DNA of 64,000 nucleotides from Psammoneis japonica (GCA_008632985.1 QPGO01000151.1:1-64000); one strand, 5' to 3'. Positions 1-60,794 are shown, counted from the first letter of the stretch. The notes: generated by a model not told the origin, from the sequence alone. Program-made: numbers and translations.

Positions 1-2486
1 TCTGTCTCCTGCAACTCTCGGTCTGACCACCACAGCTCCTACCACTGTCGGACCAACAACCATTGCTCCCACCACTGTCGGACCAACAACCATCGCTCCC
101 ACCACTCCGTCTCCTATCACTATCGGTCCGACAACCATGGCTCCTACCACTCCGTCTCCTATCACGATCGGTCCTACCACTGATTCACCTACGCCAAGCC
201 CAACAACCTACAACGATTTTCTGAGCTCGCTTTTAGCGGAAAGAAGTCCTTGGTCTGTGGAGCTCTGAAGGTGCCCGATTCGGCTCAACGTCAAGCTTTT
301 GATTGGCTCCTAGCCGATGAAGTGACCAGAGATTTGGAAGAACCTGATCAAGATCGGATTCTTCAACGATTTGCCCTTGCAACACTTTTTTACGCCATGG
401 ATGATGACGACTTTATGGACGAAACGTGGTTGACAGCGACCGACGAATGCACTTGGAGTGGAGTCGATGCTTGTAGCTCTGCAGGTGGGCTGCAGAATCT
501 AACGATCGATCAAGACAATATGAAAGCACTGCCGTTGGAACTCGGCCTATTGACAAACCTGGGTACGTCCAAGTTCGCTCTGCATTGCCTCTTCCTTCCC
601 GTGCACTCTACCTAACACTACGCTCAATGTACGTTTGAAGTTGAGTTTGACGCGTTTGCTGATGTATATAACGTCGATGTTCAGTCACACATCACTCTGC
701 TCCCTACAACGATCGGTCTGTTGACTGGTATGAGTAAGTCATTCAGCTTGGACCCGTCGTTTCTTGCCCGTGGAGCAAGTCGTATGGCATATTTTACTGA
801 CGTGGTGCTTGATGCCGCTGTTGCTTTGTAGAGAGATTTGACGTTGCGTACTATGTGGATGGTTTGCCTGAAGAAAGGGGGTATACAGGAGGCCCCATCC
901 CGTCTGAGCTGGGTCAGATGACAGCTCTCAAGGAGCTACGTTTCGGTGGAGCCTTTACGGGTACCTTACCCCAGCAGATTGGAGGACTTGTTGGTCTTAC
1001 AGAGCTTGAAATAAATGGAGGCATGATCACTGGACCAATTCCAGGACAAATTGATGAACTGACAAAGCTGACGTATCTCGATCTTGGCGGAAGCAAGTTT
1101 GTCGGTGGAATTCCCAAACAAATAGGATCCCTCTCGAACCTCGTGTACCTGAACTTGGGGGGAAACTCAATCGGCGGTCCATTTTATTCGGAGGTGGGTG
1201 ACTTATCCAAGCTAACGAGTCTTTGGCTGGGTAGGTGCAAACTAACAGGGCCTATTCCATCCGAAGTTGGGGAGTTGTCTTTGCTTCGAAACCTTTGGCT
1301 GCAAGAAAATGGCCTCACAGGTGTGATACCCACTCAAATGGGCACGATGACTGCTCTCGAAGACATTGTTTTTTCTTTCAATGCGCTTCATGGTCCAATA
1401 CCTTCAGAAATCGGCAGAGTCAGTCTTCTCCGCATCGTGAGGCTAGAGCACAATCAATTGAGCTCGAGCTTACCAACAGAGCTTGGATTGCTCACAAACC
1501 TTTCCTTATTTCGTTCTGGAAACAACCAATTTGAAGAAAAGATCCCCCCTCTTGGCTCGCTTACTCGCCTCGAAGTACTACATCTTGGTCACAACCAGTT
1601 GACTGGGTCGATACCTGTTGAACTACAAAGCTTGACTGATTTACGATTTTTGACGCTGAACGACAACAAGATTGACGGCTCGATTCCACCGGCTCTTTCA
1701 AAGATAACCAGCCTTGAAAAACTGTTCCTACACAACTTGGACCTTGTTGGTACCGTCCCCGATTCTCTCTGTGCCTTGTCACGCCTTACTCCGTTTTACT
1801 TTACTGTCGACTGCAGTGATGTTTTCTGTCCTTGCTGTCACGTATGCCAGACTCGCGAAACTATTGATATTGCTCAGTACAACTGGGAGGACGGTGCAGT
1901 CGATACGAAGCTCAGCTTTCATCCAATAGATCACCATGGCACGTTGGACGACGGAGTCAGCGCCAAGGATGGCAAATTGACTGTTTACAATGACTATGGC
2001 GTCGATCTTGGTCCCATTTCTGAGCTTGACGGAGCGACCGAAGTCTTGTTTCGCTTCGAAGACGTAAACATTACAGATTCTCGCGACTGGCTCTACCATG
2101 TGTTGCTTGGAGGTGGGTACGAGAAATACTGGGTGGCAGTGTACTACGACGACTATTTGGCAGGAGCCGTGCGAACCGAGTTACGCTTTAACATTGGCGG
2201 GTTTGGTCGTCCACGAGCTGAATTGGTGTACGACCTCGGCTTGGGCGCAGTCAAGTTTTTTGACAGCATCGAATACTACTTTGACGCATCGCAGCCGTCG
2301 AACCAACGCCTTGCGATTCGCTACAATGACGGTGAATGGACACGAGGCGGATGGAACGACTCCGATTGGACCACTAGCTTCCCAGTAAACGATGAGAGTG
2401 TGAAAATCAATGACGGGGCACGAGCAGACTGGGACGCGTTGAATGCAACCCTTGGCCAAATCACGATTAGAGCGAATCGTCCATAA
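1..2486 (+). CDS. Leucine-rich-repeat protein (5' partial): Thr/Pro stalk, LRR N-cap, LRR array, Cys cap and ~200-aa uncharacterised C-terminal domain
   Basis: Frame 2 from base 2 reads PTTVGPTTIAPTT...; cap motif QRQAFDWL..QRFALATLFYA..W...ECTWSGV; plant-type LRRs (LxLxxNxLTGxIPxExGxL). Introns ~563-640 and 734-831 join in frame to ORF 855-2486. Apparent 1-nt deletion near 261. Confidence 0.9.
20..210 (+). repeat. Coding tandem repeats (PTT-rich mucin-like stalk)
   Basis: Repeated ACCACTGTCGGACCAACAACCATYGCTCCC and ACCACTCCGTCTCCTATCACNATCGGTCC units. Confidence 0.85.
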
Positions 2487-2571
2487 GCCAGATCATTTAC
2501 AAGTAGACAAGATGAATTCATCAATACGACCTTTGAACCTTCATGGTATCTCTGGCAGTACCCCTAAACTT

Positions 2572-3183
2572 TTAGATTAGGTTGTTGCTGGTCTTCACCT
2601 TTTTGTAAGTCGACGGATCCGCCTTTCCCAACGGACTGGCCCGAGCCCATGCCTGAATGCGTTCAACGACACTCAATTCTCCGTCCCCATTTAATTCCTC
2701 CGGCACGTCCATCCTGAGAGTGATGATGTTGTAGATATCGATAGTTTCCATATTTACAAAGTCTTCGAAATCATTCAGGTCTCGTTCAGAAAGATTGGGA
2801 ACATTCTCACTTGCCCACGTTCCAAGAAGCAAGTCAACTTCAAGCCATCCGCGTTGCTTTGATCGATAAACGAGTCTTTTCTTGCGCACCTCGACCTCCA
2901 TCTCTGAGGTATCAATTTCATCCGAAGTAGCATCCATTGATCCCTTCGGAATTCCCTCCAGCGTAGGGAGTCGAACATGACGACGGTATATTTCCTCAGA
3001 CTTTGGCTTTGCTACCTTTAGTAACTTTTCCTCTTCTTTAGACAATTTGTGCGTGGCCTCGCCGCTCTCGCCGCGATACCAGCATCGCTGGAAACATGCG
3101 TGAGACGGTGGCATGACAGAGTTATGCCTCATCGCACAACGAGGCGTTGTCAGCACTGATCGTAGAGCCATTCGAGACGCCAT
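2572..3183 (-). CDS. SDHAF2: Succinate dehydrogenase assembly factor 2 (Sdh5/SdhE family), mitochondrial
   Basis: RKKRLVYRSKQRGWLEVDLLLGTWA family motif (RGxxE); Arg-rich N-terminal presequence from ATG at 3183. Confidence 0.92.
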   Translation of the reverse strand: MASRMALRSVLTTPRCAMRHNSVMPPSHACFQRCWYRGESGEATHKLSKEEEKLLKVAKPKSEEIYRRHVRLPTLEGIPKGSMDATSDEIDTSEMEVEVRKKRLVYRSKQRGWLEVDLLLGTWASENVPNLSERDLNDFEDFVNMETIDIYNIITLRMDVPEELNGDGELSVVERIQAWARASPLGKADPSTYKKVKTSNNLI

Positions 3184-3607
3184 TCTCTGCAAGCTGATTG
3201 GTCTCTTCTGTGTAGGGCTAGGCGAATGTTGTTCAAGCAGCTTACTTCGTTAACGTTGTGGCTCGGCTCGACCGCGGCGCATTCCGCAAAGCGCCGCCAG
3301 CACAGAGCACGGTGCGCAGAGCTCGCGCCAGCCCGCAACAGCTGGTGCATGTTCGTCGATCGTGACAACATCACTTTCCCTTTGACAGAGGAGCTTAAAA
3401 CGATGCGTTTAGATTTCTACAATTAATAACAGAGAGCTCTCTACAGTTGGATCGAAGATTTGTCGGTACTAAGTCTCTAGTAGAGTTAGATAGATAGACC
3501 AGAATGTGACTTTGAGGGAAGTGATGTCTAGTCTCTAGTTTAATCGCAGAATTTGGAGTTTCTTGGTAATGTCGCTGTTGGTCGCAGGTCAAAATGCTGG
3601 CTAGCGA

Positions 3608-5958
3608 CTAGGGCGCTAGTTTGTGGGATCCTCCGCTCTTCAGAGAAGGTGACTCTGGGGTTAGGAGCGCAGTCAACTTCATAAGCATGTCTTGTTCCTG
3701 TCCTTTGTCCAAGCTACGACTGTCGGAAGTTCCCCTTTTACTTCCTATATCTTTTTGGAGTCTGGAGCAATCTCTTTGTATCGACTTTCGCATTTTCTTC
3801 AATGAAAGGGATTCTGTCTTTATTTCCTTCTGCATATCGTCCATGCGATCCTTGAAAAAATCCACATGCTCTTTCAGAACCTTTTGTCGTAACTCAGGAT
3901 CGTACACTTCTTCAAACTCGCCTTTACGTCCTCCCCACCAACGCCTCTTCTCCTGGTTTTGTAACACAGCTGGACTATCTAGAACTCTAAGAACCAAATC
4001 GAAATCTTGCGAAAGACTTATCATCTGTTCCGCTCTGGTATCAAGAAGCGCGTCCACAAACAGCACCCACGCTTCTTCTTTCTTCATGTGACTAAGCTCG
4101 ACCTTTTTCTTATCTATTTCATCTTGCTTCAGGTCTTTCAGTTGGTCCATAATATCAGAGAGTTTTGTTGCGGCCATTCTTGCAGATTCTGCGTCAGACT
4201 TGGCTTCCTCTAGTTCTTGCCGTAACTCCTCATTTTCTTTTGAAATCTCTCTCGACTTTTTCACTTCTTCCTTGAGAAGTTCCACCTCCACTTTCATTGC
4301 AGGAATCTCAATAGCTGCAGCACTCACAGATTCCTGATTGTCCACCTTTGCGAAACGCAGCTCTTTCTTCAAGGAAGCAACTTCCTTTTCAAGTTCTTTT
4401 ATTCGTTGTGGAGCATCAATACTCTCATCGCCATCTTCCACAGGGAGAGGAACTGGTTCCTCCTAAGCGGGCAGAAACGGATTCGAGAAGAACAGCATTT
4501 ATTATTGAAAAATGACACGAATCGGTTTGTACACACGATGACTCATCGCTACTTACATCGTCGCCAGAAGAGTCTGGGTCAAACGAAACGACTTTCGCAA
4601 TTCCTGGAGGTGCATTCGAAGACAGTGAACGAAGAGCTTGTTGCAGTTCGGCCACTTCTGTCTTGAGAAGCTCGTTTTCCCGCCTAAGGGCGGCGGCTTC
4701 TTCGGGACTAATGGACTTTACAATGTTGCGAGTAGCGCTGTTCTTGATGTTTCTCGCGCTTGTTGCGTATCTCAATGTGTTGACAGACTCATCAATGTTA
4801 AAATCAGCAGGGCTGACACAAGCGATCATGACTGTCTTTGAGTTTCCGCCCAAGGAATCCTGTAGCAGTCGAGTTAGCTTGGAATCACGGTAAGGTGGTT
4901 TTCGGGCTGGACCCTTTGACTTTTTGCCCTGTTCTGATAGGGCTGAAACGACCTGTCCCAAAACAAACAGTCCTTTGTTGATATTGATTCCCTCCTGTTT
5001 GCGACTGCCCTTAGCACCTGTCTTCTTTATGCGTTCGGAACCTAAAATGGCGACACAAAATGATGAGCACAATCAGCAAATTCTCGGGCTGCAGCAGTAG
5101 CGTCTCAACTTCCAAAGATAAACACAACGAAACAGCTCTCTCACCTGCGAGATCCACAAGTGTAAGCTTCGAAGTAAACTTATCAACTTGGTTGTTCTCA
5201 GAATTCTCGAGAACCCCAGATATCTTTAGGGTACAAATAGCATGAGACCGACTAGACACCGCATTCATCGCAGTCGCCGCCACCACTCGTTTGCTGGATG
5301 CCTCCTCCATTAGCTCGCCGATTTCTCGTGTAGACTTTACTTCCCTAGCTGCCAATCCCGATACGTAAATCTCTCCATTCAATGTTTCTCGAATCTTCAA
5401 GCTGGTATTCTCGTCCGCTGCCAGCAAGTCTCGTATTTCTTCATTATAAATTTCCAAGTACGACAGCTCAATTCTTGCATTACCGTCGCATTTCTCTTGA
5501 ACCGTTTTGAACAAATCGGCGCACGCACGAGGAATCACGCCGTCCTCTGGCTGAACGTCTACTCCTCCTCCGGCGGCGGTACCCATTGTATGCGTTTTTC
5601 CTGCTCCAGTTTGACCATAGGCTAGAATTGTTGCATTGTAACCTCGGAAAATGTCGTCACAGACAGCACGGCAAGCTCCAGAACGGACATAGACTTCTTC
5701 TTGCGTACATTGTTTGTCGAACACTGCATCCAACTCAAACCAGCGCTTCCCCCCAGTTACGCTAGGCCCTCTCGCTTCGACCAATTCCGGTTCACCACTA
5801 GAAGCCGACCAATGCAAGCGATTATCGATATCGCCAACCCTCTGCTGCATAGAGGTCACGGTTTCTTTTGATCCGCGCTGTTCCTCGGTTCGCGACAGCG
5901 GACGGATTCTCGCGACAACGCGAACATTGGAGGAAGATGCGGCCGTGTTTCCAGTCAT
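3608..5958 (-). CDS. Kinesin motor protein (kinesin-4-like) with coiled-coil tail, 3 exons
   Basis: [11 protein letters not shown]-loop, SSRSH, DLAGSER across intron 5144-5042, [18 protein letters not shown]; second intron 4556-4463 (GTAAGT...TTAG) joins the tail in frame. Confidence 0.93.
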
Positions 5959-6378: not shown

Positions 6379-7934
6379 ATGGCGCCGGACGCAGAGCTCT
6401 CTGCAGTCCAGGCGCCGTCTCTTGACAACATTCCAGTCTACAAGTCCTTTCTCGAGGAGCCGGAACTCTACTGCCGAATCCATGTTCATTTGATTGGTGC
6501 TTTTTCAACGGATGGGGGTGGCATTCGGAAACGGCGCAACAAGTTGGGAGGCCGTCACCTTGTAAGAGACAAGATTGCGGACCCATACGTCATTGTGAAA
6601 ACCGTTGGTTCTGACACGGGAAGTACGGACTACTTTCCCATTGGCACGCATACCTTTAAGGTGTTGGAGAATTGCCGTATGCCTCTCTGGGATGCAAAGT
6701 GTCTTCTAATCTGCAAGAAAGATTCAACGGACTCAGTGAAGTTCACCATGCTGGACGAGAACCGTAGGAAGGATGAGGTTCTCATGGAGGTATCGCTTCC
6801 CCTCTCTGACCTCCCTGCCGCCGGCGAAGGTTGGAAAGAGTTTTCACAGTCCCCATCCGAAGGTCCCATGAAAAACATGGAGCTCGCGTTTAGCATCAAA
6901 GTTACAGACTGTGCTAATCACCGTATTGTTTCCAAGGAAGACACCGATGCGCTTTGTCTAATTTCTGGGACGATACAGTATAAAGAGGAGACGCTATTAG
7001 GGGACACTAATGATGACGAAGACAATGCTCTCCTTCAGTGCTGGCGAACCCCTGGTAACAACAGCGCTGTATTGTGGATCTTGGGCCGCAACGACTGCTT
7101 TATGCATCCACACGTGGCCAAACCACTCTTTTTCGAGCAAAACTATGATGTTTACGTGCTTAACTATAGCCAGAATGGAAGATGTCGCACGAAGGGTTGG
7201 GTGCACGATGCCCATTGTAACTCCCACAACAAGCATGGGGATTTCAATGTGTACAATCGCCAGATTGATGAAGCAATTGATATTATCAATCGCCTGTCGT
7301 ATGAGACGGTGCTTGGATACGCTCATTCAACCGGCGGGCCGGTACTTATCAATTATCTCATGGAGAACAATGACGAAGAATTTGATGGGTTTATTTTCAA
7401 CAGTCCATTCTTGGACTGGGGCTATGTGGGTGGTGACATGGTGGAGTTTGTGCTGGAAAACGTTGGATTCATGGAACGGATTGGAGTCATGCCCCTAGAC
7501 ACCAAGATGGGGGCAGCCGCTACCCCAGCCTCTCTCGCCAAAACGCCCCTCCATTATCTTGGAGAAGACATTGTTCTTTCTGAATGGGCCGCCCGCATTT
7601 GGAGTCTCTATCACTTTGGTGCGATCGACCCCTCTACAAGGTGCCCATGACGGCTGGGTTTGCTCGAGGGGTGACGAATGTGCACCGCAAACTCGAGAAA
7701 AGGCACGAGAAGAAGCGCGCCATTACTTCAAAGCCCTTCTTGTGCATCACCTCGCGAGGTGATGATGTACTCAAGGCTTCGGAGACAACAAGCCGTGCCG
7801 ACTGGATCGGACCTGCACGGTGTGAAGTGGAACTTCGCCACAACGGGCATGATGTTTTCTTGAGCCAAGATGAGGAGGATGTGACTATGGCTGTCGAAAT
7901 GGTAGCCAGTTGGATGAAATGCCATAGCTTTTAG
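6379..7934 (+). CDS. C2-domain plus alpha/beta-hydrolase (lysophospholipase-like) protein
   Basis: ADPYVIV...PLWDAK C2-like N-terminus; YAHSTGG nucleophile elbow, NSPFLDW, DDVL and GHDVFLS motifs; frameshift near 7617. Confidence 0.8.
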
Positions 7935-9254
7935 AAGTGTCAGGTAGAGCCTACCAGTTTATAAGTAATAAGATACCTGATTGTGGTGGCGCTTTCCCGG
8001 TCGCCGTATTCGAAATCATCTTTTCCGCTTCGGGGTTGTATTGATGCAAGTCCAGTTGGGGCAGAGGTGATGCATGACATGCAACAACGTCTCTATGTAC
8101 TCTTGCTGGTCACCAAGCGGTAAACCCACTTCTGTTGCTGAAGCTTGTTGCGACCCCCAGTGTGCTGCGCGCGGGTCCTCGATAACCGCTGATGGCAATA
8201 GATCCTCGACTTGTTGGAGGATCTTGCCAAGGCTGCCCTCGCATTTCAAACTGGGCACACATGTTTCAAAGACCTCTCGGTAATCTTCAATCCGATTGCA
8301 CGAGTGGAGAGGTCTCTGTCATCATAGAAACACACATGGATCATCTTAAAATCCTCCTTCAAAAGGAACAGTGACATTGTCATGACCCCATTTCCCTTGA
8401 CCATTAAAGGTGCTGAAATTCATGACATGGCTCTGTTCTTCACAATCATGCATCCATCTTCACCAAGGATGATTCATTCATTCTTGCAAGAAACACCACC
8501 TTCTGACAGCTTGTCAACACAATCTTGGTTCTTCTCAGCATTGGTTTTTATTCCACACCCTGCAGAACCATGCCACTGCCACACCAAACAAATCAGCAAC
8601 ATGCTTTCAAGCATTGTTGTTGCCTTGTTTGGTCACCCTTGACAAAAGTTCCTTGTGCTCCATTGCATGGTGCTTCAGCTCAGAATGCTTTTGTGCACCC
8701 CTGTTCCTCTTTTCTTTTTCAGCATGCTTTTGGTCATAATTTGGATTTTTCACCTGCATGTGGACACTGCATTCCCTTTGGCACTGGGAGTTGTTGGTCT
8801 TGACCATTGTTGCAGTTGTCAATGAATGAGACTTGTCACAATGGTCAGTGCATGGCAACATCATGAGTTTTGTGCGGTGCAAGCAGATGGGTTTGTCAGG
8901 TTTTGTGCTCCATTTCAAAACTTTTTTGTTTGTGATCATGTGGCCACACAGTCAATGGATGCCATTGTGGATTTTCTTGGTTGTAAGAGCAATTTTTTGT
9001 GGCTTGTGGCATCTCACTGGTGCAATGAGTGCTGAGTGTTTGGAGGATTTTGGCACTCCAATCAGTCAGATGTGCCAACCTGTCCTGTGACCCAACATTT
9101 GTTTTGACACTCAAAGATGAGATGGGCCAATTCCACAGCCACACAAACCCATGATCCAAGAAGAGAGTTGCAAGCAGGACCTGCCACAAAAGGAATGAGA
9201 GCAGGGTGTGAAATCATGCCTGTGCAAGACACTGGAACAGGTTCCAGCAGACCG

Positions 9255-9520
9255 CGAATGAGAAAAAGGCCAAAATGCCTCAAGCTCTGTCTTGATCAAT
9301 GACGCCATTTCACTCTTTTCATGGTGTCACCCAAAGGGGGTTGCAAGGCAAGGAGGCTAAGGCAGTGCTTTGCACAACATTGCTGCAAAGCTGGCAGATG
9401 AATGGCAGAAGCCTTGCTCAGAAGTGCGCCGATTTGTGAGTGCTGCAAGGATGAGCATCGCTGCTGCTGTGAGAGCTGCCCATCAGTGCCTTGCTTGGAA
9501 GCTTGCATGTCACTTCTTCT
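9255..9520 (+). mobile_element. Relic C-terminus (restriction-like endonuclease region) of a CRE/R2-type non-LTR retrotransposon
   Basis: Across frameshifts: KCLKLCLDQ*RHFTLF..GKEAKAVL..NIAAKLADEWQKPCSEV..RMSIA..VRAAHQCL, resembling the recalled KYL..CL.QRRHF.PF..KW.KPYS.V..RMSIA.VRA.H.CL consensus. Confidence 0.7.
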
Positions 9521-10189
9521 CAGATCAGCTCCAGGGGGGCACTGGTCTGTCCCTTTGCAAGTGCCAAAAGGCCCAACCTGAGTCAGATTCTCCACTTGCA
9601 GAGACAGAGTGCCAAAGCCACCCCATCATCACAAGATGCCATGGACAAAAACCTTGCCTCCTCAAACAATGTGGGCAGCACCCCAGGCCCTGCAGTGTGC
9701 CAGGATTGCATTCAAATCACTCACGCAGGATGGCGTGCACAAAACCCAACCCAAATTCACACAACTGCATTTTGACAATTGCACAAAACCCTTTTGGTGC
9801 CCTGCTGTTCACACTGTTTTGCATCTGAGTGCAGCATGGTGACTGGTGACGCGATGCACCATCAATGTTGTTAAGGCAATTGCAGAAGCAGAGGGCAAAA
9901 GCAAGATGATTTCATTTTTCAGGATTTTCCACTGTGCCAGAAAGATGCAGCATGCCACACATCTCATCACCAAAAGGCAGCAACATGAAGGTGGTGTGTT
10001 GTTGCAATGTCATGTCAGCAATGTGCTCCAGAGTCTTTTGTCATTGTGGACATTCAGTTTGTTGAGTTTGCAACAGCTTTCATTTGTGCATGTCTCCCAG
10101 GACAGCCCTCACTCATTTTCAAAATGTTGCAGCAATGGAGGAGAGCTCTGTTTTTCAACCAGTCACTTTGGTGCATTCATTGTTGAATG

Positions 10190-11900
10190 ATTGAGGCTGC
10201 ATCCAGCATTTGAAAAGTCTCATCATCATCATTGGCATTGAACGGCAATTTGTCAAGCAAATTGCACTCACCAGAATCCAAAAAATCCAACTCAGCAGAA
10301 TTCTGATTCCCTTCAATTTCACCAACAGCATCACTCTGTGACATCATCTTCTCCACCTTGCCAACATTGCCACCATCTCCTCCCTCTCCAGCTTCAGCCT
10401 CAGCCACTTCATTTGTCTCATCCATGCACACAACCTTCACCATGTTTTCTTCTCCCTTCAACTTCAGGTGTTCTGCATGATTCAGACACTTGCTTTTGAC
10501 CTCCATGTGAGGCAACCAGAGTGCCTTTGCAAGATTTGCATGTCTTTGCTGTCTTGCTCACCTTCTTGGCTGCTGTTGCTGGCAAAGGTGAGTTTGTTTT
10601 GTCTGCAGCATCTCCAGAGACATCATGTTTTGCAAATCCCATCCCTCTCCCACAGCCTCCATCATGCTTGGATTTCTCAAAAGCTGCTTGGTGGCTTGAT
10701 TTCTGCAGCATTTCACAATGACATTTTTTCTGCCTGATCTTGTTCACTGCCAGCTTCTGCTTTGCCAGCTTTGTGTTTCTCTCCTTGTCAATCATTGCCA
10801 GCCATTCTTTTGCACTGTCTGCCACAGGAATGCCCAGCTTTCTGTGCAAAAGGCAAAAACAGTCTCTTGGCAGCCATGGACAGCAGTGCTTGTGGACATG
10901 GAGATGTGGTTCTGAAGAGACATGAATCAGCCACACATCCGGTTCTTTGGTGTGCACAATGCAGTCATCTGATTCAGCACCTTGTTTGCTTGCATGTTGT
11001 TCTTGTGTGCAATTTCTTGTGGCCTCTCCAAACTGACAAACACTTGGCCACAATTTTGTGCAACTCTTTGTGCAAGCAGGGATCAATGTCTTTGCTGCAG
11101 CACTGATCCGATGTTTTCACTTGCTCTTCTTTGCTTTCCATCTTTTGTTTGCGCCAATTTCCACAATGCTGGTGGTTGTTGAAGTGATGTTCAAGAAGGC
11201 CTTGGAAGCATTCTCTCTCATTCAGTCTCTGGCAAGTCAAGGAGCTGTGTTCTCATGTGCCCAAAATTCTTCACAAGCCTCAACATGTCACAACATGCAA
11301 TGGATGTAACTTTCTTCCCCTTTCTCTTCAGATCACACAAAAGCTGTCCAAGAAAAAATGTCTTCAATGAGATGGACCCCACTTGAATTTGGGTTTGGGG
11401 ACTCCTCACTTCAGTTGGCCTGTGCGCTCCACTTTCACCAATTTGCCTTGTGAATTGGGTGCCCTTGGCCAGTCCTTGAGACATGGCCATGCTTTGCCTT
11501 GTCTTTGATCTTTCACTTGAGCTGAGCCCACATCAAGGAGTTGTCATCAGCGCCAGTCAACCCAGGGGACACTTTCTTTTTCTTGCATGTCTCCTTGCAC
11601 AACAGAACAGCACTGTGTGCTTCCAATCACTTTGAATGGCCTTTGCAATTCAAGGGGCACTGGTGCATGGGCACAGTGGCATGGCCAGTGCATCACATGC
11701 AGATGTTCTGCTGCTTGCACAAAACCATCACAATGATTGGCTTGTGAAGCTTGGGGCCAATGACAGCGGCATCTTCAGAGAGAGAGAGGCGTGCCATTGT
11801 CCACTGTGATGAGCTTGCCAGCCCATGTTGGTTGACACTGTTGCAGAAATGCCATTTGCCGGATGCCATGCACTGGTGCAAAGGAAGGAGAGTGCACATT
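10190..11900 (-). mobile_element. Degenerate Mutator-like transposase
   Basis: VSTNMGWQAHHSGQWHASLS (DMGWQKR.SG.RY.S.S), HQCPLNCKGHSK*LEA (H.C..NY.GSSK.ME), ADDNSLMWA (DDDS.MRA), LEHHFNNHQHCGNW, TQANKVLNQ..TPKNRMCG. Confidence 0.78.
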
Positions 11901-12149
11901 GCGCAAACAGAAGAGGATGATGAGTTGGATCCTCAATCAATTTTTCAGAGAAGATGTTGAGTCTGTCATGAGAGCGGAGCCCAAACAAATGCAAAGGAGC
12001 AAGTGTGTTGCGTCTTGCCATTGGATGCAGTTCTTTTACAAGTGGCTGTGGAACGTTTGTCACGAACTCGGCCTTTCCATCTGTGACAACTGCATCTGGT
12101 GTTTTGTCACTGTGATGTGATGTTGGCACAGTGTGTGGCTTGCTTGCTC

Positions 12150-13200
12150 CTTGTTTGCACACAGCACGCAATTGTCATTGCAAGTCTTTTGAAAGGGTTC
12201 CCATCCTCCTTGAAGCAAAAAGCAGTCTCTGTCGTTCTTGTGGGATGACAGAGTGGGAGCGCGATTCATGGTGGCAGCGTTGCGTCCGGCAGCTGCTCCA
12301 TTTTTGATCAATGATTCCCATTTGCTGCTGCGGCATGACCCATCATTCATGGACAACAACCAAACGTTGCTGCATCCTTCCAATCCACCATTCTTGCATT
12401 TGGCACCACCAAACAGTGCGGCAACACCATCTTGCACGGCACATGGACAAGGCAAAGCACAAGGACACAGAGCATTGTTGGTCATTTCGACACATGTCCA
12501 TTCCCATGTGGATGCATCCAATGCAAACACCTCATTGGACATGGTCCCATCCTGTGCGGCTCCACACATCATGAGCAGCTTGTTTTTCGACATTGGTGTG
12601 GCGGCATGCAAACCACACACCACATGGTGAGGGGGTGTCACCCGCTGTGGCTTGCTTCTCAACAACCACACCACTGCCCTTTTCATTGACAGTCACAACA
12701 AGAACGTGATTGGCGCAGCAATGAGTGTGCAACAAAATGCAGTCGTCATGCAAAGCAACCGCGACATGATGACTTGCAGGTCCATCGGGCAGTTTGATGT
12801 TTTCCAGCACATTCCATTTGCTTCAATCCTTTAATTGCACGACATCGTCTAGAATGATTCTGCCAGTCCCTGATGTTTGTGGATCCCAGCCACCAAACAA
12901 GGTGGGCTTGTTTCGTAAAATGGAGCAGGCAGATGCCAACCGTGGGTTGGGAGCATCGCTGGCTTTTTGTGGAATCCAACCTCAATCATTGCTCCACTTC
13001 CACAAATCATTCTTGACATGTTGAGTTGTGGCATTGCCGTTTTCTTCTTTTTCTTCCACATGTCCACCAAAGACGTGCAAGTCACCTTGATTTGTCACAA
13101 AAGAAACATGTCCGGGTTGGGGTGGAGCGATCTTTGCACTCCTCAAGATCTGTCCACTCAGCCTTGCAGCTCGTTGCCAAACTCTCAACTTGCAGCATCA
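12150..13200 (-). pseudogene. Kelch-repeat protein pseudogene (hypermutated host-gene copy)
   Basis: GHVSF..GDLHVFGGH, NDLWKW, LFGGWDPQT, LFGGA, LLQGGWEPFQKTCNDNCVL; stops and frameshifts; expected Tyr replaced by His/Cys. Confidence 0.85.
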
Positions 13201-13563
13201 TGACAAAGAACAACAATGCAAGTGTGCAGCTAAATTGTGATGCACAGTGGCGACTCATTGTCCTGTTTTGTCATGACTTGTGACAGCAGCAGCAACAAGA
13301 ACCACGAACCGCAACAAAAGAGAAAAAAATTCTCCACCAAACCCTTGCACAGACTGACCTTGCTTTTTTTCCAAGTGTGAGAAAAAATTTGCTCAATGTG
13401 GGTTTATGCCCATGTTCAGTCATTGACAGGTCTGAATGAACCATGTGAAAAAAAAAAGATTTTGACCAGACAAAATCGGGTGAAAATCGGGAAAAAATCT
13501 GCAAAATCTTTTTTTTGAAAAAAACAACAACAACATGCATGTTGAGTCATAAACACACACACA

Positions 13564-13609
13564 ATCAACTGTCTGCAGACAGTCCACAGACAGTCTGCAG
13601 ACAGTTGAT
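13564..13609. repeat. Perfect 17-bp inverted repeat (hairpin)
   Basis: ATCAACTGTCTGCAGAC (13564-13580) / GTCTGCAGACAGTTGAT (13593-13609); related palindromic run TCAACTGTTGATCAACAGTTGATCAACAGTTGA at 13758-13790. Confidence 0.85.
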
Positions 13610-14859
13610 CTGTTGTTTGTCAATGACTGAATCCATGTGTAAATTTTTTTGAAAAAAAGCATTTTTTTTCCAAATGAAAAAGAAAATTTGCCAAATGTGG
13701 GGGTTCATTTTCGGAAAAAAATGTTGTGCACATGTGCGTTCATTGTAAAAAGCATTGTCAACTGTTGATCAACAGTTGATCAACAGTTGAATTTTTTTGC
13801 TGTGGCGCAAAAAAAAAACACCAACAAAAAGACGACCGACGATGCAACGGAGATGTCAGCAGATCATTCTGCCGGCAAAATGTCGTCGTGAAGTTGCAAC
13901 ATCCAAGTTTACAAATGAGGTTGTTGTCTGTCGACACAATCGCTCCTTCCACCCAGTCACAATCATGGACAGGCACTGGCCAAGAATTGGTTGGATGAAA
14001 GGTCGCTTGCGACTTTGGCACGTCCGTCTCGTTGAATGGAGATGAGACGATTCTTGCAATTGGAGACACAACAAACATTGCTGTGCAAACTGTGCTGGTG
14101 GTGTTCTTCTGTTTAAATGCTGCTCTGCCTTGGACCGTTGGGTTCTGCTCATCAGCGATGTTCCTGGACAAGCTGATTGTGACCGATTTGGATTTCCGTG
14201 TTGCTCTCGGACGTGGGAGACATTGTTGCTGTCGGAGCTTGCCATCAAAAGACGAAAAATGGGACAAGGTCAGGGTTGGTTTGATTGTTTGAACATGATG
14301 TTGTCATTTCATCCTGGAGCCATCTCGGGCAGAGAGTTGTTGGTCGAGCTGCAGATTGTCAATTTGGCATTTCTGTTTTGCTCACTTGGAAACCGTTCTC
14401 ACTGTTGGGACAAACAATTGGAACAAATGAGGGTGGGAATGACAATCAATCAACACAACAATTGCCAGTTGATGCTGGCGCCCTCTGCGGGCTTTTAGCC
14501 GACATTCGTGGAAACAAAGCTGGTTGCAGGTGTTTGAACCATGCTCTGAAGAGATTCACAAATCATGATGAATGGCCCACTGCTTCTGTTGGCATGCTGC
14601 AAATCGATCACAACAAGTCAAACCACAACTCTGTCTAAGTGCGCCATTGTCACCAGCACACCATGCCACAAGAGAAGCATCATGCGCTTGTTTTCTTTTC
14701 CACTCTCGGGCAAGCGGACCTGGCTCAATGTCACCGCAGCTTGGATGATCAGCACAGTTCATCAGGAAGCATCTTTTCTGTTTCTTCATCCTCTGGTGTT
14801 GCCTGCTGCTGCTGCTGTTGTTGATTGTGATGATGTCCAAAAAAGTGGAGAACCATGGC

Positions 14860-15210
14860 AGACACACTCACGACGAGTCCGTCACATTGAATCCCACTCA
14901 AGGAATGTCCACAAAACCAAATGGATGCCACCAGTGTCATAACCTTGCATGCCAATCCAATGATGGAACACGTCAGGGCCCCAAATTCAGCAATGGTGAC
15001 AAAAATAGAAACTTGTCTGAGTGCACCACTCAAACTGAGAGCCGAGAGCCACCAACAAAAAGCCCGTTTTTCGAAGGACATGAACTTTGTTGAGTGCAAG
15101 GTGTGACATGCCAGCCAAGATGGTTTTCCCCAATTGAACATTGAATTTACACTCATGAGCTTGTCCTCGTGTGCACCCGTGCCACCGTCAAAGCAGTGGA
15201 AAGTGGCAAA
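14860..15210 (-). pseudogene. Fragment of a UAA-family (SLC35B) nucleotide-sugar transporter, hypermutated
   Basis: FDGGTGAHEDKLMSV and IFVTIAEFGALTCSIIGLACKVMTLVASIWFCGHSL match the family C-terminal pattern (DG..G.Y.D; FGAL....I...RK..T...S...YGH). Confidence 0.78.
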
Positions 15211-16044
15211 CATTGTTTGTTCCATGCTCGCACACACTCATCCTCCCCACAAAGAGCGCCACACCACCACAATCATGACGACATTGTCACATTGTTTCTT
15301 CACAGGACATTTTCTTTCCTCTTTCCCATGAGAGCCCCCACAAGCATCACGTGTGCTGGTTTGCAACTCTTGGCTCTTGGTTGACACTCAAGTGGGACAA
15401 ATGACATGGCGAAGTGACCTTGCCGAACAAAAGACACTGCCCATGGGGAGGTGAGTCCCAAAATGGCAAAGCGTGAAGCTGGTGGAACAGTGGTGGGTGT
15501 GTCGTTCTGAACATAACGTCCTGCCGCGCAGCTGTCATGGTGTACAATGACGATGTAGCAAACAAAACGCAAGTTCGTGCAACTTGCGTCCACCCGATGT
15601 TGTGCACTCCAACAACAATCCGTGCACGACAAAGGAGTGCATGATTCCAAAAAAACACAAGAGCAACCACAGGAGTTCTGTTTTTGTACAGTACAGTAGT
15701 TTTCTCTTCTGAAACAGAACATCAACATCACACCAAGAACTACTGTAAACAACTGTAACACCCGACACCCGCACACCAAAGAAAGTGAGTGCGGGAAGAT
15801 GCGTTGGGCGGTCGCAGAATTCGCGCGATTGGATTTTTGGAATTTTTGAAATTTTTGGTGCTGACGTCCAGATATATTTACATCTTAACATCCGTATATA
15901 TTAGAGCTCGCGACCAGCGATGATGGTTTCGATGATTCTTCATTTTCAATTTCACCATGAGCACACACCAGCGCCGTTGCCGCACAACCAACCACCAACC
16001 ACCAACCACCAACGTTGATATAAAGCCCCGATAGCACAAAGAAG

Positions 16045-16708
16045 ATGCGAATCTCTTTCATTCTCATAACGTTGTCAAGCTTACTGCTAGTGAATTGCAG
16101 TGCCTTCGTGTCTCCCAGCACAACGGGAGCCAAACTCAATCGCGTTCTTTCCTTGCGCAGTTTGACAAACAACAATGACCATTCAAGGCCGTTGTTGTAT
16201 CAAGTGCTTGCGACACCTCGCGAGAGTGACCTAAAACCAGGAAATTGCAACTTTTTCTACAATGATGAAGTGTCAAGTCACTTGCACGGGTACATGTTGT
16301 TGTTTGGATTGTTTGCTGCAAAAGATGAGGTGTGCTTCAAGTGCTCATGTACCGTGTGTACGTCTCGTTTCGTTGTTTACAGGTCACTCATCCTCTTTTT
16401 CTTATCTTCACGCCATTTCTCGTTATTAGGTTTTCGTAGTTTCCTTTGGAATCTTTGCTGCTCTAGCGGCCACAGCTACCACAATTGGAATATTGCCAGC
16501 CAATCCACGAGTCCCTGCAGTTGTGGCGATTGCCACCTTGGCTACAACTCTTCTTGTTCGCCAGTTGATACATCCAGAAATGTTGGGATACGAGGCTGAT
16601 TTGGCATGGAAATTTGAACTCTTGGTTTGCGCCGTCAATGTCCTTTGGGGATTTGGAGGTTCGTGGCGAACCAAGGAACCCAAGAATGGAGCCACGTTTG
16701 GTTTTTGA
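16045..16708 (+). CDS. Small predicted plastid-targeted membrane protein, 2 exons
   Basis: Signal peptide ending CSA-FVSP (diatom bipartite motif); intron ~16330-16429 gives in-frame hydrophobic helices ending at TGA 16708. Confidence 0.75.
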
Positions 16709-17753
16709 ATTTGTGAAGTAAATATCCTTTCGTCTCAGAATAGGTAGTAGGATAGTCCAACTGCTGAACGGAGGACTGGTGGGCGCGGCTACGTTTTGCG
16801 ACTGCCACGAGACAAGCGACAGTGGGAGGACTTGATTCATTCAATCGACTCGAGTGGTGCTCACTCGCACCATGCCAGATTTCGCGGGATTAAGTCTAGA
16901 TTTGGAATACTACAATGACGACTGAGCGGATTGATAACTGCTCTACTACCAATCTGCTCGATTCCAGTTTCAAGGGATCTGCGCTTATGCGGTGAATGCC
17001 TCTCTTACGTCTAGCTGAAGTGCTGCCTGCGTCTGATTCATCATCTTATTCTGCATTCCCTGGTATTGTTGGCATCCTTGTGACTGCATACAGATCACCT
17101 ATTAAATCCTGTCCTTACAGTTGCATCTGACGGCAAGGCGTGAGGGGATTGCTTGATTCTGAGGTGGTGAGTCCCATTTATGATTGTGCCCGGAAGTAGT
17201 TTCAGCCGGTTTTTCTCCAGCAACGACATCTGAACACCTATTTTGTACTCCCAGTCTGGAATTATGGGTAGCGGGGATTGCAGAGGAGGCAAGCCTTAGC
17301 TTCTCACTGCAGGGGAATCAAGCTGTGAAAGTTGCTGCCGATCGGATCCAGGTTCAGAGGTATCAAGAATGTTGTCCTGAACCTCCTCATCGTGGCGCAG
17401 TGTGGTTTGGGACATTTCGCAGTCCGTGGCTGCGTTCTTCGTCGTTTCGGTGGTTGTTGTAAGATTCAAAATACTGTTGAAAAGGAGGTCGAAAATTACA
17501 AGCTAATATATACTCTGATCCGTGGACACGTCATCGCCTTTGACTATCATATCGTCCGATCCTCGCATCCTTTTGTGCTATGATTGCCGTTGTGAAGTGG
17601 GCCCAAGGCGGCAACTACGAGTATGATGCAGACTTACGGTGTTAGGGTCTGCTAAGTTATCTTGATTATTTCCTAAAGGGACGAACAATATCGAAAGTTT
17701 GAAGCGAGATCTTCTTCTCAGAAAGAATCAATCGAGAGAGGGCGTGAAAGACT

Positions 17754-19126: not shown

Positions 19127-19917
19127 GGTGTTTTGACACGATCGTCAGTTTTCATGTGAGAATGATCGTGGTACGTTTGGAAAGGAGACCCGTCAAACCA
19201 AAATTTGACGGGCGATACGATAGGGTTCCCTCTGATGAGTGGATGGCATGATATTGACTGGCGCTACTTGTACGGTATGTAGATGTATGGCACCGAAATT
19301 TTCAGATTTTCGTGTGAAAGAGTCGTCCTCGTCGTCGCGGCGCGGGCGAGCTAGTCTACTCTGCTAGGCCCTACCGGTACATAGCAGTAGGCCTCTAAAA
19401 CCTACCTGGCGGTCCTATGTGCATCTATCGCCAGCCTGAAAGCGCAATAAGAATGAAGGCGCGGAAAGTTCTTCACAGGGTTGGTCAAGAACCCGGAGCC
19501 ACGACTAGTAGAGAAGCTCCCCGCTCTCTTTGGCCCTTACGAGTAGTCTTGCTCTCTCTACTCTAGAGCAGAGAGGGGCCCTACTTACTCTCTTATCTCT
19601 CTACTCTAGCTGGAGAGTATCGATACTCTAAAGCTCTAGAGTAGAGACAGCTCTCTCTGCAGAGCTCTAGACAGGCTACCTCTAGCTAGCCACCCTCTCC
19701 AGCTACTAGAGAGCAGTTAGACTCTCTCTGCTCGAGAGAGTGCACCGTACATGTACTCTTATGATCTAAGACTCTTTAGCGTTACCCTCGTTATTATGCT
19801 ATTTAATCGAGATTCAGTAAGTAAAGACAAGAGGCGGACTCATTCAAGCAATGCTACCTAAAAGGAACTAGCCAAAGGGCAATCATGACTGTGTATGTTG
19901 ATTCGAAGCGGAGGTGA

Positions 19918-22213
19918 CTATGCAGCCCTCTGCTCTTCTTCGTGATGAGCTCCATCAGCAGCTTCCGTGACAATAGGATCATCACCGTACATGTGTCCAA
20001 TCAAATCTTCATAAGTCCTGAGCACCATGTGTCTTCGGATGCTCATTTTCGGAGTTAGAAAGCCATTCGCAGCGGTAAAGGGCGCAACCAAGCTCCACGA
20101 CTTTGGTACCTCAAACTTTTTCATATTTTGGCAGGCAGATGCAATTTCAGAGTCGATAAGATCCGAGACGCGTTGGTCGTTTGCCATGTCTTCCTCCGAA
20201 ACGTCCTCCTTGAGTTTAAACTCCTGTCGGATAGCTTCCCAGTCGGGCACAATCAGTGCGGTGTTGTGTGGGCGATTGGCGCCGCAAAGAACAATCTGAC
20301 TGATAAAGCGACTGAGTCCAATCTTTTCTTCGATTGGAGTGGGAACGACATATTTTCCATTCTCAAGTTTGTACTGCTCCTTGATTCTTCCAGTATCTTT
20401 ACAAATCCGTCCACGTCAATTCGTCCCAAGTCACCAGTGTGGAACCTACTCGATATGCAAGGGAAATGCATCTTGTTAGAAAGAGGTCGCTGCTGTCGAA
20501 CTCGACGTCGATCAGGCAAGCGCAACTTACATTCTGGATTTTCCGTCTGGGGCAATGCTGATGACTTCATCGGTAGCCGCCTGGTTGTTGTAATATCCAC
20601 GCATCACATTGTCGCCGGAACAGCAGATCTCGCCTTCTTCGCCCTGAGCCACAGGCTTGCCGTCTTCTCCAATAATATACACAGTCACTCCATCAAGAGG
20701 CCTGCCACCGGTTCCTGGTTTCCGAGAAGTAGGAGTATTCATTGTGATAATGGGAGATGTTTCTGTTAGGCCGTACCCCTCACAAACGGGAATACCGAGA
20801 TCATCCATAAAGTCCGTCACTTCGGCCGGTAGCGCAGCACCGCCAGCAAAGCCATGCTTGAGATTGCCACCAAACCGCTCACGAATCTTGGAAAGTACAA
20901 TGGAATCCAAAGCCTTCAACTGAAACTTTTCAACAGCACCAAGAGGTTGTCCCCCGTGTTCCGCTTCCACCCGGCGCCTTCCCAACTGTAGCGCCTTCCT
21001 CATTAGGTTCTTTCGGATCGGGTTTGAGTTCTCCATGGTGTTGTGGACACCGTCATAAATCCTCTTGTACAGCGTCGGAACGGCGAAGAGAACGGTGGGC
21101 TTGACAAACTGAAGATCCTCCAGAATGGAAGGAACTCCACGGCAAATACCCATCGACGATCCATGAGCAATCTCTGCCCATAATTCACAAGTTTGTCCAA
21201 AGGAGTGAGCCCAAGGCAAAAACGCAAGACTGCGGTCCGTTTCACGATAAAAGTCATCAGGTTCCTCCTGTCCCTTCAAGCCCGCCTTGATATTCGATAC
21301 AAAGTTCAAATGAGTCAACTCCACACCCTTTGGCTTTCCGGTGGTGCCACTCGTATAAATGAGATTAGCCAAATCGTCCTGCGTTGGCCTTGTAATCAAG
21401 CTCTCGGTATCTTCCGATGCGTTCGCCATTGCTGTAGCAAAAGCGTGCGGTTCACCCATAGCTGCGTCCAGGCACAGAACCGACTTGACGAGGGGGGTTG
21501 AAGGAAGCACCTCCTCACGACACTTGTCGTAAATGTCTTGGTTCGCGCAAAAGAGTGTGGTGCAGCCAGAATCATTCAAGATGTAATTCCAATCAGAAGG
21601 CATCTGAGCCTCGTACATGGGGACAATCGCGGCATTGAGAGAAAATGCGGCGGCACCAATAGTGGCCCACTCCCAACGGTTGTTCGAGATGATTCCCACC
21701 TTATCGAATTCCTGAACACCTAAACAACAAAAACAACAAGGTTTTCAGTGAGCGAGAGCAGTCCAATTAAACTCAAAACATTCCAGGAAAAATATTTTAA
21801 CAACAAGTGAACTTACCCATCTCCTTAAGTACTTGACGACACTTGTTCACATTCGTTCCGTATTCTCCAAAAGTCATCCACTCAAAGTCTCCTCCTTTCT
21901 CGGATTCCTTATACGTTCCAAACAACTCGTGTTCGTTGAATGCAACACAAGCATTCACCTGTGCTTCATGGAGTGTATCAAACTTGACCATTTGACAATC
22001 GTCAAGAATCCCTTGTTTTCGCAAATTCACCAAGTCGAGTTCCGCATAAATCGTCCGCGATAAAGTCTTTCCACCAGCATGATAGGAACGCAATGATCCT
22101 CCGTTCTTGCACTTTAGCAGCGGTTCCACTGCAACGGTCGATGAGGGAAGCAAGCTCCTGTAAGACTTGCTTCCAATCCGACGCACCGCGGTGCAAAGCT
22201 GAGTGCTAGCCAT
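19918..22213 (-). CDS. Long-chain acyl-CoA synthetase, 3 exons
   Basis: IYTSGTTGKPKGV, EGYGLTETSP, FHTGDLG, TPKMSIRR; introns 21816-21720 and 20530-20446; 1-nt deletion near 20395 in ITGRIKEQYKLENGKYV. Confidence 0.93.
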
Positions 22214-33037: not shown

Positions 33038-33519
33038 GACTGAAGAACGCTCTATGATCTTCCACCGACCACCATGCCATGCAAAAGGGACGGCTGATAA
33101 GTTCCTATTGCTGCCCGCTCATGGTGATTTCGAAGAAAATCCTAGCCTATGCACATTGCTCATGGATCTGTGAGGTAGGAATATTTAAAAGCCAAGTTTC
33201 ATTTTTCAATTTTACACTGTTTGTGCTCGTAGGTTTCCAGACGCACCGTCAGCTGTCACTAACGTTGCTGGTGTTCGTTCCTCATCCCTTGTGACATGAT
33301 GTGTGTGTATGATGTGTAGCAAGAAAAGGTCAAGAGCCGAAGAGACATCGACGAGACTATAAGGGAATCGAGAACCCAACCCAAGAAGATCGCAAACCGG
33401 TTCGAAGCCAACAAGAAAAATGAGAACGTGGCTGAGAAAGAGTGTGGAAACGAGAAGAAGGACGAGAACAAGAATGCCAACAACCTGGAAGGCCACTTTG
33501 TTGTTGGCATTAGACTGGT

Positions 33520-36500: not shown

Positions 36501-37700
36501 TCAGATTCAACTGCACATTGACAAAGGATTTGGACAAAATGTTCTTCGTTGAGTGAGCCCAAAGTGCTCACATTTCTTCCTGCCTTTGGTTTTTCTGAGG
36601 ATGCCCAGCAGCATGGTGGTGCAACATCAACCAACACTTTTCTCCAGAGTGCCAAAAAAGCAGCTGCACAACAGGTCAACAGTGCCCCCCCCCCAGAAAG
36701 CCATTTTCCAATTTTCCCTGTCTGTTCAGGGCACCACCCCAACAGTTTGTGAGCTGCCTTGGTGAAGAATTTTGCAATTGCCCAGCGAAGTTGACATTTG
36801 ATTTTGCGTCTCCACGTGCACAGGTCTAACCCCAAATGAGCGATGGCCTCAATCTTGCAAGTGCAGACAGCAACAGGCACAGTTGTTGCCAATGTCTTTT
36901 TGGCAAATGGGTGGCAGACATGAGGCAGATTTTTCACTTTTCAGGTTGGCAGTGCTCAACACACCACTGCCAGGGCAATGTGGCCTCAAAAAGGATGAAA
37001 GAAGCACCAAGTCATGCCCCCCACAATGTGAGGAAGTCTGGGGCTGGGGAGCAGTGCACTGGTGAACAAGTCTTTTTTGGTTTGCATGCATTGAAGTTTT
37101 GTTCCCCCCCCAGGAGCTGACAACACAAACGTTTGTGGCAACAGGAAGAGGAGACATGTTTGCACCCGCCAGGAAGCAAGCAAGCCCAGCTCCTTGTGCA
37201 GACAGGCATTTTGTGCCCTGCAAAACCAAGGTGATTTTGAAATTGTCTTTCAGAGCCAACTGATGAGAATGAGACCTGCGCCAAAGCAAGTGTCAATGCA
37301 AAAAATGACAAGGCCAAGACAACAAATGCCATTTGCATGTGCTGCGTGCATGCTGCACTTTGACATGCCCTGCACAAAAAAGCAGGGCTCTCTCAAGCAA
37401 ATCAACTCTTGTCTTGTTGATGATTTTTTCTGCAGTGTTTGCATGAGATCAGCAAAAATGGTGGTGATCTTGGCGCTCAAATTGATGCTGCATCAACCAA
37501 CCCAAGAACGATGCCCTGCAAAAAACACACACGACAGCGAGAGATGCGAGAGATGTGCCATCACTGCCCCCACCACCGCATCATGTCAGCTGGCAACCAA
37601 AAAGACACAAGGCATGCAACACGACAAAGGAGGACAAGATTGCACCAGCAAAAGGGCAATGGGAAACGTGTGCGGTTTTTTGTCGATGGTGCGAATTTTG
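33520..37700. other. TpA-depleted hypermutated block B (unclassified repeat/TE relic)
   Basis: Same TA/CG loss and TG/CA excess; dense Cys/His-rich spurious ORFs nearly lacking Tyr; family not recognised. Confidence 0.88.
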
Positions 37701-37771
37701 ACCCGACAGTTTACCGTTTTCCCAGTGAGTGCTTTATTCACCACAGGTGTGCGTGCTAAACCTTCGTGCTC

Positions 37772-37806
37772 CACGCACGCACGCACGCACGCACGCACGG
37801 CACGCA
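37772..37806. repeat. (GCAC)n microsatellite
   Basis: CACGCACGCACGCACGCACGCACGCACGGCACGC. Confidence 0.9.
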
Positions 37807-38028
37807 ACACCCCGGCATCACCGATGACAGACCTTGGAGGGAGAAATCACCTTACCGGTACCAAAGAAAACGTTTCAAATGTAGAAGTTGCGAACAGTGT
37901 GTTTGACCATCACGACACAAGGACGACTCTTGAGCATCATCACAAAGCAACCATGAACTTGCGACGTTAAGCACTCGTCGTTCAAACAAAGTTACTTTTA
38001 GAACAGAGTGAAAAGGGATTGCAAAGAC

Positions 38029-54831: not shown

Positions 54832-54899
54832 AGGAAGAAGACAAGGAAAAATCTTTGTGCCATGAAGCTGCGCAGAATCTGCACAGATCATGACATCAG

Positions 54900-60780: not shown

Positions 60781-60794
60781 AGTGCTGAGTCTCG

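Follow-up and report, generated by a model that had tools for sequence, protein, structure and literature searches.

We consider it likely that the 480 nucleotides at 13801–14280 lie in a dead FG-GAP_2 gene within a 7.1-kb domain of pennate-diatom DNA, that TpA-targeted A:T>G:C hypermutation in this domain is near exhaustion, and that the loss of CpG is a second process. The window, by which we mean the whole analysed stretch of 64,000 nucleotides, is gene-dense eukaryotic nuclear DNA with genes for a kinesin, a topoisomerase, a PP2C, a histone deacetylase and others. The closest named relatives of its kinesin, at about 60% identity, come from pennate diatoms (Bacillariaceae, Pseudo-nitzschia, Fragilariopsis).

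Hypermutation of silent DNA that is specific to TpA was, to judge from the accessible text of a preprint, first reported in 2026, for a single chlorarachniophyte, Bigelowiella natans, and with partial depletion (Mettrop et al., bioRxiv 10.64898/2026.01.13.699255). As described there, 231 of 302 nuclear mutations in mutation-accumulation lines fell into two silent viral inserts. All but one of these insert mutations (230 of 231) were A>G or T>C, the GC-biased ones were all on TpA, and the insert rate was about 6e-7 compared with 3.5e-10 per site per generation. The authors report clusters poor in TpA and rich in CpA+TpG and propose an ADAT2-like DNA adenine deaminase; the same accessible text also cites ADAT2-type deaminases acting on A as well as C, and the DNA activity of amphioxus and Trypanosoma deaminases likewise enters by citation. 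CpG, diatoms and stramenopiles are absent from the main text of the preprint as accessible. Our literature search, with subscription journals outside its coverage, turned up no account of TpA erasure for diatoms. The accessible text of PMC9998398 describes diatom transposons as CG-methylated via DNMT5a, and some diatoms as possessing a RID-like DNMT4 of unknown function.

TA and CG content of the region

A recount of 13801–14280 gave 24 CG (o/e 0.86) and 2 TA (o/e 0.06), the latter both within TTTA at positions 13910 and 14114, exactly as the initial annotation had it (about 24 CG, 2 TA, both in TTTA). CA is found 38 times (o/e 1.41) and TG 54 times (o/e 1.63). Per 100 nt the region holds 0.4 TA and 5.0 CG, compared with 2.5–4.4 TA and 5.1–7.8 CG in the 14 intact ORFs of the window. 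For 118 pyrimidine-purine steps at a background TA share of 0.153, the probability of two or fewer TA is 7.7e-7, and hence chance is no explanation of the low TA content. Partitioned as in the background, these steps should furnish 70 CA+TG, 30 CG and 18 TA, while 92, 24 and 2 are observed; by mass balance, about 88–89% of the TA and about 20% of the CG were converted. The median is 6 CG among the 2106 sliding windows of 480 nt in which TA occurs three times or less. Only 0.4% of them contain 24 CG or more, and they come from just two places, the region of 13801–14280 and 37331–37850.

Three TA-erased blocks

The region is part of the first of three blocks from which TA is nearly absent:

8406–15513: block B1, 7.1 kb, with 22 TA (o/e 0.044), 120 CG (o/e 0.31), CA o/e 1.87 and TG o/e 1.76; its core at 8.5–11.5 kb is erased of CpG as well, and the right part (12–15.5 kb) has kept CpG
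33361–37711: block B2, 4.4 kb, with 9 TA (o/e 0.031) and 56 CG (o/e 0.22)
52082–64000: block B3, more than 11.9 kb and continuing past the end of the window, with 33 TA (o/e 0.039) and 142 CG (o/e 0.22)

Together the blocks make up 23.4 of the 64 kb (36%) and contain 64 TA, compared with 1504 in the 40.6 kb of background. The o/e values are 0.03–0.04 for TpA, 0.22–0.31 for CpG (0.03–0.3 in the block cores) and 1.75–1.87 for CpA/TpG, against 0.55–0.59, 0.96–1.03 and about 1.1 in the background. The block edges are sharp, with the last and the first ordinary TA about 150–350 nt apart, and the TA state is all-or-none: over 128 windows of 500 nt, TpA o/e is bimodal, being at most 0.12 in 45 windows, between 0.12 and 0.2 in none and above 0.2 in 83.

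Several features were seen around the block edges. The left edge of B3, which may be an assembly join, coincides exactly with the sole N of the window (52081); the tract before it is rich in TA, with 32 in 51802–52069. Short TA-dense tracts are found in the background near block edges at 7886–7974 and 15873–15902, and another TA-dense background tract at 19501–20000 (TpA o/e 1.22). Contigs of one public sequencing run (X2) skip 100 and 88 nt at 16327–16428 and 17165–17254; these GT..AG-bounded skips, which resemble spliced transcripts, fall into the genes immediately to the right of B1.

When the window was compared with itself in a purine/pyrimidine alphabet, the only matches were a 98-nt pair in the background, the inverted arms in B3 and the tandem arrays; no unmutated source copy of any block emerged. 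A Pfam scan of the ORFs in the CpG-poor core of B1 (8.5–11.5 kb) gave no family match. Pfam detected no transposon or virus family among 87 block ORFs, the ones of about 100 aa or longer out of 190 with at least 70 aa. The very sub-block under study contains host-type relics, and a foreign origin of the blocks is a possibility only. The repeats in B3 are the following:

59491–60747, plus strand: 44-nt tandem array (families D1–D3, 19–27 copies), CpG o/e 0.45–0.56, TA 0
58903–59126 and 63407–63628 (span 58903–63628): inverted arms with 32-nt sub-repeats, enclosing the 44-nt array (I1–I6, D4)

The copies of the 44-nt array differ mostly by alternation of CG, TG and CA, and TA is missing at the repeat positions of every copy. 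The arms share 94% identity over 225 nt in the purine/pyrimidine alphabet, and together with the arrays they look like a foldback or terminal-inverted-repeat element. Over 59000–60747 a 32-nt tandem array (9 copies) accompanies the 44-nt array (up to 27 copies). Elsewhere in B3, the ORF at 55788–56741 (plus strand, 318 codons) was placed by Atlas near clusters of DUF4371/ZBED5 type, which are derived from hAT transposases (0.89–0.94). Pfam and PDB sequence searches gave no support for this assignment, and a hAT-derived ORF is a lead only.

Dead host-type genes in the right part of B1

Three gene relics were recognised in and beside the region:

12138–13152, minus strand: nearly full-length Kelch-repeat gene relic, spread over two frames and bearing in-frame stops; 3 TA, 31 CG; PF24681, E 4.7e-10
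13936–14522, plus strand: relic of an FG-GAP_2 repeat gene, in the frames 13936–14080, 14139–14190 and 14192–14522, with in-frame TGA at 13996 and 14282
14752–15237, minus strand: C-terminal part of a relic of a UAA-family (nucleotide-sugar) transporter gene; 3 TA, 11 CG; PF08449, E 2.2e-6 (27.5 bits, cut-off 26.2)

The CpG-keeping right part of B1 is thus a row of host-type pseudogenes. The spread of the FG-GAP_2 relic over three frames requires at least two frameshifts. It was recognised through its ORF at 14285–14635 (plus strand), which in a full HMMER scan matched 43 repeat proteins at E ≤ 1e-3, with 3–10 matched stretches each. PF14312 (FG-GAP_2) is present in five of the eight top matches that were scanned; the top match, P0126, resembles an off-frame product and was left out of the column counts for this relic. 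tblastn with the 43 proteins gave 219 HSPs, every one on the plus strand at 13.7–14.5 kb. Direct searches with the DNA itself were less productive: Pfam at E ≤ 10 gave no match for the relic and only chance-level matches for the six ORFs of the region, a word-based protein search with 14046–14495 gave no match, and the best Atlas score for 14285–14635 was 0.81, with nothing usable. On this protein similarity we read 13801–14280 as part of a dead FG-GAP_2 gene, and not as a repeat unit of obscure origin. Between the Kelch and FG-GAP_2 relics lies a GC-poor spacer (GC 0.32–0.38) rich in A/T homopolymers, with dyad-symmetric short repeats at 13561–13615 and 13760–13791.

In the FG-GAP_2 relic, Trp, Gly and Ala persist in their repeat columns; the TGA at 14282 faces an Arg column (74% of 120 aligned residues) and the CAT at 14294 a Tyr column (65% of 121 aligned residues). 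The exact stretch 13801–14280 has no strongly conserved Tyr column among the aligned homologues, where Tyr makes up 15–20% of residues at best, and so it is gene-density statistics and the neighbouring codons at 14282–14294 that support ancestral TA inside these 480 nt. For the Kelch relic (five homologues, 36–43% identity), we counted the columns in which at least three of the five homologues agree. All 8 Trp columns and 21 of 23 Gly columns are retained; in three of five conserved Tyr columns the relic has His (CAC, CAT and CAT). Seven of nine conserved Arg columns read CAA (3), CAT (1) or TGY (3), i.e., Gln, His or Cys, and the other two keep CGN. We also considered a strand bias linked to transcription: the TG/CA asymmetry on the sense strand of the relics (1.08–1.52) falls within the range of the intact ORFs (0.65–1.73) and is uninformative.

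Relation between the losses of TA and CG

An A:T>G:C change at TpA cannot arise by 5mC deamination, and in the 45 low-TA windows residual TA shows no correlation with CpG o/e (Spearman 0.14, p 0.34). This supports the initial annotation in that TA loss is no simple by-product of methyl-CpG deamination. It had further held that TA erasure was nearly complete when CpG decay had barely begun. The first part stands, with about 88% of the TA gone at 13801–14280, but CpG decay is under way, amounting to about 20% in the region and, relative to intact ORFs, to 40–63% in the Kelch, FG-GAP_2 and UAA relics.

The plot of TpA against CpG o/e that the initial annotation had proposed gave, for the 500-nt windows of these 64 kb, a two-sided answer. 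At TpA o/e of at most 0.12 throughout, CpG o/e ranges between 0.03 and 0.67, with a median of 0.20; 8 of the 45 windows lie at 0.4 or above and 23 below 0.2. CpG thus varies 20-fold inside DNA in which the TA state is all-or-none. CpG loss is, however, confined to low-TA windows: of the 83 windows with normal TA, a single one, located at a block edge, has a CpG o/e below 0.5. Of the claim that the two losses are uncoupled, we can keep the part that concerns extent, whereas their targeting is shared. The two processes are therefore not independent in their targeting and could share machinery.

A single RIP-like machine, triggered by repeats or heterochromatin and converting TpA (A>G) and CpG (C>T) with unequal efficiency, would turn the region at 13801–14280 into an early or weak target. 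It would explain why CpG o/e lies below 0.5 in 37 of the 45 TA-free windows as against 1 of 83 normal ones, and why the TA and CpG edges of the blocks coincide within 0.2–0.5 kb. The same sample contains related copies of 12.1–15.3 kb, which would make the relics repeated DNA, and possible components are at hand in the RID-like DNMT4 of some diatoms (accessible text of PMC9998398) and in the ADAT2-type deaminases of A and C cited in the accessible text of bioRxiv 10.64898/2026.01.13.699255. We nevertheless regard one machine as unlikely. The 20-fold range of CpG o/e is unrelated to residual TA, and the mutator of B. natans, with 230 of 231 changes A>G or T>C in the accessible text of the same preprint, operates without a C>T partner. 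In addition, B2 is TA-free beyond its CpG-poor zone on either side (33400–33800 and 37500–37711), where 100-nt profiles show TA absent and CpG already normal; the excess is 0.2–0.5 kb at either margin, and the right one holds 25 CG in 480 nt at 37341–37371. The right margin, 37331–37850, is also the second of the two CG-rich places among the TA-poor 480-nt windows. An ORF at 37095–37970 (plus strand), which has no family match, runs across it.

Two processes, of which TA erasure is fast and saturating and CpG decay slower, fit these data, and so does an unequal methylation of the sub-blocks. We infer that TpA erasure is the faster of the two, as the initial annotation had proposed, yet this ranking presupposes a common start, and differing methylation levels explain the data equally well.

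Direction and context of the changes

Pyrimidine-purine steps make up the same share of dinucleotides in the blocks (0.237) as in the background (0.236), and so do purine-pyrimidine steps (0.237 and 0.236). Of the pyrimidine-purine steps, CA+TG accounts for 59% in the background and 93% in the blocks, CG for 25% and 5.6%, and TA for 15.6% and 1.2%. The share of the class being equal, TA and CG became CA or TG through transitions, which are confined to pyrimidine-purine steps. Beyond what a change of TpA and CpG alone accounts for, the blocks also differ from the background in GC (+25%, 0.073 vs 0.059), AA+TT (+23%, 0.186 vs 0.151) and TC+GA (−21%, 0.118 vs 0.150). These shifts could reflect the composition of the source or additional TpC>TpT and A>G changes.

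The few TA that survive follow a strict context rule. In the blocks 55 of the 64 lie within TTA/TAA, against 39% in the background (p 2.6e-14) and against the 48.6% that newly arisen transitions from CA/TG should give (p 6e-10). No TA in ATAT, ATAC/GTAT or CTAC/GTAG survives in the blocks, compared with 509 occurrences of these contexts in the background; TAC and TAT are fully erased, and TAA survives. A per-strand, roughly multiplicative model fits the erasure, with T and C as the 3' neighbours erased best and A erased worst. CpG has its own order of survival in the blocks, CCGC/GCGC surviving best and TCGA worst. The standing ratio of TA to CA+TG in the blocks, 64 to 5161, implies that the erasure is many times faster than ordinary C>T change at CpA.

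Both strands are affected. Sites at 12508–12523 read TG, CA, CA and TG in the window, so that both strands were changed within 15 nt. This bears on the idea that transcripts were hyperedited from A to I by an ADAR- or ADAT-like enzyme, then reverse transcribed and inserted. A 5' U or T before the edited A is indeed the known preference of RNA adenosine deaminases (accessible text of bioRxiv 10.64898/2026.01.13.699255). Editing of an RNA is hard to reconcile with two altered strands, with the equal enrichment of CA and TG (1.75–1.87), with tandem arrays, spacers and three differently oriented relics that are all TA-free inside common sharp edges, and with the loss of CpG in the same domains. 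We judge it highly improbable.

Sequence support and related contigs

Contigs from the public run X1 (one sample) match the block with no difference over 541, 1011 and 347 nt (12390–12930, 12953–13963 and 14480–14826), at a word depth of 32–43. As the X1 sample may be the source of the assembly itself, this agreement is no independent support. Run X2 gave no difference-free contig over the block among the matches listed. Related contigs of the same sample cover 12.1–15.3 kb and differ from the window with an excess of transitions over transversions, 288:58 in X1 and 164:36 in X2; the one over 13882–14168 shows 34 letter differences and 10 gaps.

We classified the best-supported 40 of 404 differences, located at 12223–12983. 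Twelve of them are CA/TG in the window and TA in the contig, and eight are TG/CA in the window and CG in the contig. The rest comprise three CA/TG swaps (six rows), one GCG/ATA cluster (three rows), one CG in the window that is CA in the contig, and ten unrelated differences. The homologue columns and the related contigs agree, and the copy in the window is consequently a descendant of DNA that contained both TA and CG.

These contigs also speak to an artefact in which modified bases were misread and TA and CG are truly present. Such a reading could draw on the fact that the supporting run is possibly the assembly's own sample, with a library type that is not on record. It is even less probable than RNA editing: the chemistry can read TA and CG, as the related contigs in the same run do at homologous sites, the X1 contigs agree with the block without a single difference at the depth given above, and the relics bear frameshifts and unrelated substitutions as well. 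Least probable of all is a source that was naturally TA-free or lost TA by selection, one of the conditions under which the initial annotation would have had to be given up; it has nothing in its favour but the composition itself, and it is contradicted by dead host-type genes with frameshifts and stops, by homologues with Tyr codons and related copies with TA and CG where the window has CA or TG, and by the 2.5–4.4 TA per 100 nt in 14 of 14 intact ORFs.

Proposed mechanism and significance

In the mechanism that we favour, TpA is converted into TpG or CpA on either strand until TA is nearly gone. The agent may be a chromatin- or repeat-targeted DNA adenine deamination at 5'-TpA, in which A becomes inosine and is read as G, as proposed for B. 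natans; by the same analogy the hypermutation may still be active. CpG would be converted into TpG or CpA in the same domains by a second process, which we take to be the usual decay of methylated CpG, probably through 5mC. The depth of this decay would differ from sub-block to sub-block, which would leave the FG-GAP_2 relic TA-free with about 80% of its CpG kept.

Beyond this single window, we offer only tentatively, and with some doubt, the idea of a standing defence in diatoms based on domain-targeted DNA adenine deamination. It would saturate TpA in silenced repeats and duplicated host genes, independently of 5mC decay and outrunning it, extend 0.2–0.5 kb beyond the CpG-poor core and have a TadA/ADAT-like 3' preference (T, C > G > A). 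Together with B. natans, it might then be an old defence of the SAR lineage and no curiosity of one alga. Metagenome contigs near relatives of the kinesin (80 loci, 410 kb) lack the signature, which is weak evidence given that many of them are short or distant; TpA o/e is below 0.15 in 14 of their 1520 windows, all of them GC-rich (0.57–0.67) with CA/TG o/e of 0.8–1.4.

What we see is the same footprint as in B. natans, here at saturation and in a new lineage, the diatoms. Three points are added to the published main text: CpG decays in the same domains but to a different depth, copies of host-type genes are destroyed as well as repeats, and TA survives essentially only in TTA/TAA (55 of 64), which constrains the enzyme. 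Were this true genome-wide, it would give diatom biology a RIP-like genome defence, a simple sequence marker of silenced domains and a two-speed clock, in which TA is quick to saturate and CpG slow to decay.

Comparison with known systems

In RIP, known from Neurospora and other fungi, C is changed to T mainly at CpA, which creates TpA. The blocks resemble RIP in their context-specific transition hypermutation and their sharply bounded tracts; RIP wrecks repeated or duplicated DNA, gene duplicates included, and the relics may be DNA of this kind. The chemistry is the opposite, since here TpA is destroyed and CpA/TpG are created. Instead of the TpA excess and CpA/TpG deficit of RIP, TpA o/e is 0.03–0.04 and CpA/TpG o/e 1.75–1.87. 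As to duplication, related contigs divergent by transitions exist for 12.1–15.3 kb, and no second copy of a block lies within the 64-kb window.

The decay of methyl-CpG in transposons matches the second process. It, too, converts CpG into TpG/CpA in silent repeat domains only, and it explains the CpG o/e of 0.03–0.3 in the cores, the Arg columns that read CAA, CAT or TGY (7 of 9) and the TG/CA found against CG in 8 of the 40 listed differences. It is no account of the TpA loss, because removal of TpA is impossible by that route and because the region has lost about 20% of its CpG as against about 88% of its TpA, the loss of TpA being complete at 80% CpG retention.

The natural TadA site in tRNA-Arg is U-A-C-G. 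A target A preceded by T or U links the blocks to ADAT2/ADAT3, to TadA-type deaminases and to ADAR hyperediting, as far as these are covered in the accessible sources. The known natural substrates of these enzymes are RNA, whereas the substrate here would be DNA and the enzyme is one that we only infer.

B. natans, in the accessible text of the preprint, is the closest system. There as here, TpA is converted to TpG/CpA on either strand in discrete domains where TpA is low and CpA+TpG is high. Our evidence for A>G/T>C transitions comprises the conserved pyrimidine-purine share, the change of Tyr codons to CAY, the TA that stand against CA/TG in related contigs and the excess of transitions; that for discrete regions comprises the three blocks, which measure 7.1 kb, 4.4 kb and over 11.9 kb. 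We also count as a likeness that the low-TpA sequences of B. natans include transposon-type genes and many unannotatable ones. As to changes on TpA only, the rule in B. natans, the blocks have lost TpA, but CpG, which the accessible text does not mention, is lost in the same domains, and GC, AA/TT and TC/GA differ, source composition and mutation being inseparable here. The host is a diatom, a stramenopile, and not a chlorarachniophyte, and the targets include host-type pseudogenes and tandem arrays without any recognisable viral gene. Our footprint is read from sequence alone, and a rate was measured only in the B. natans lines. Finally, TpA o/e is 0.03–0.04 here compared with 0.45 in the giant-virus insert of B. 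natans as given in the accessible text, which places the diatom blocks near saturation.
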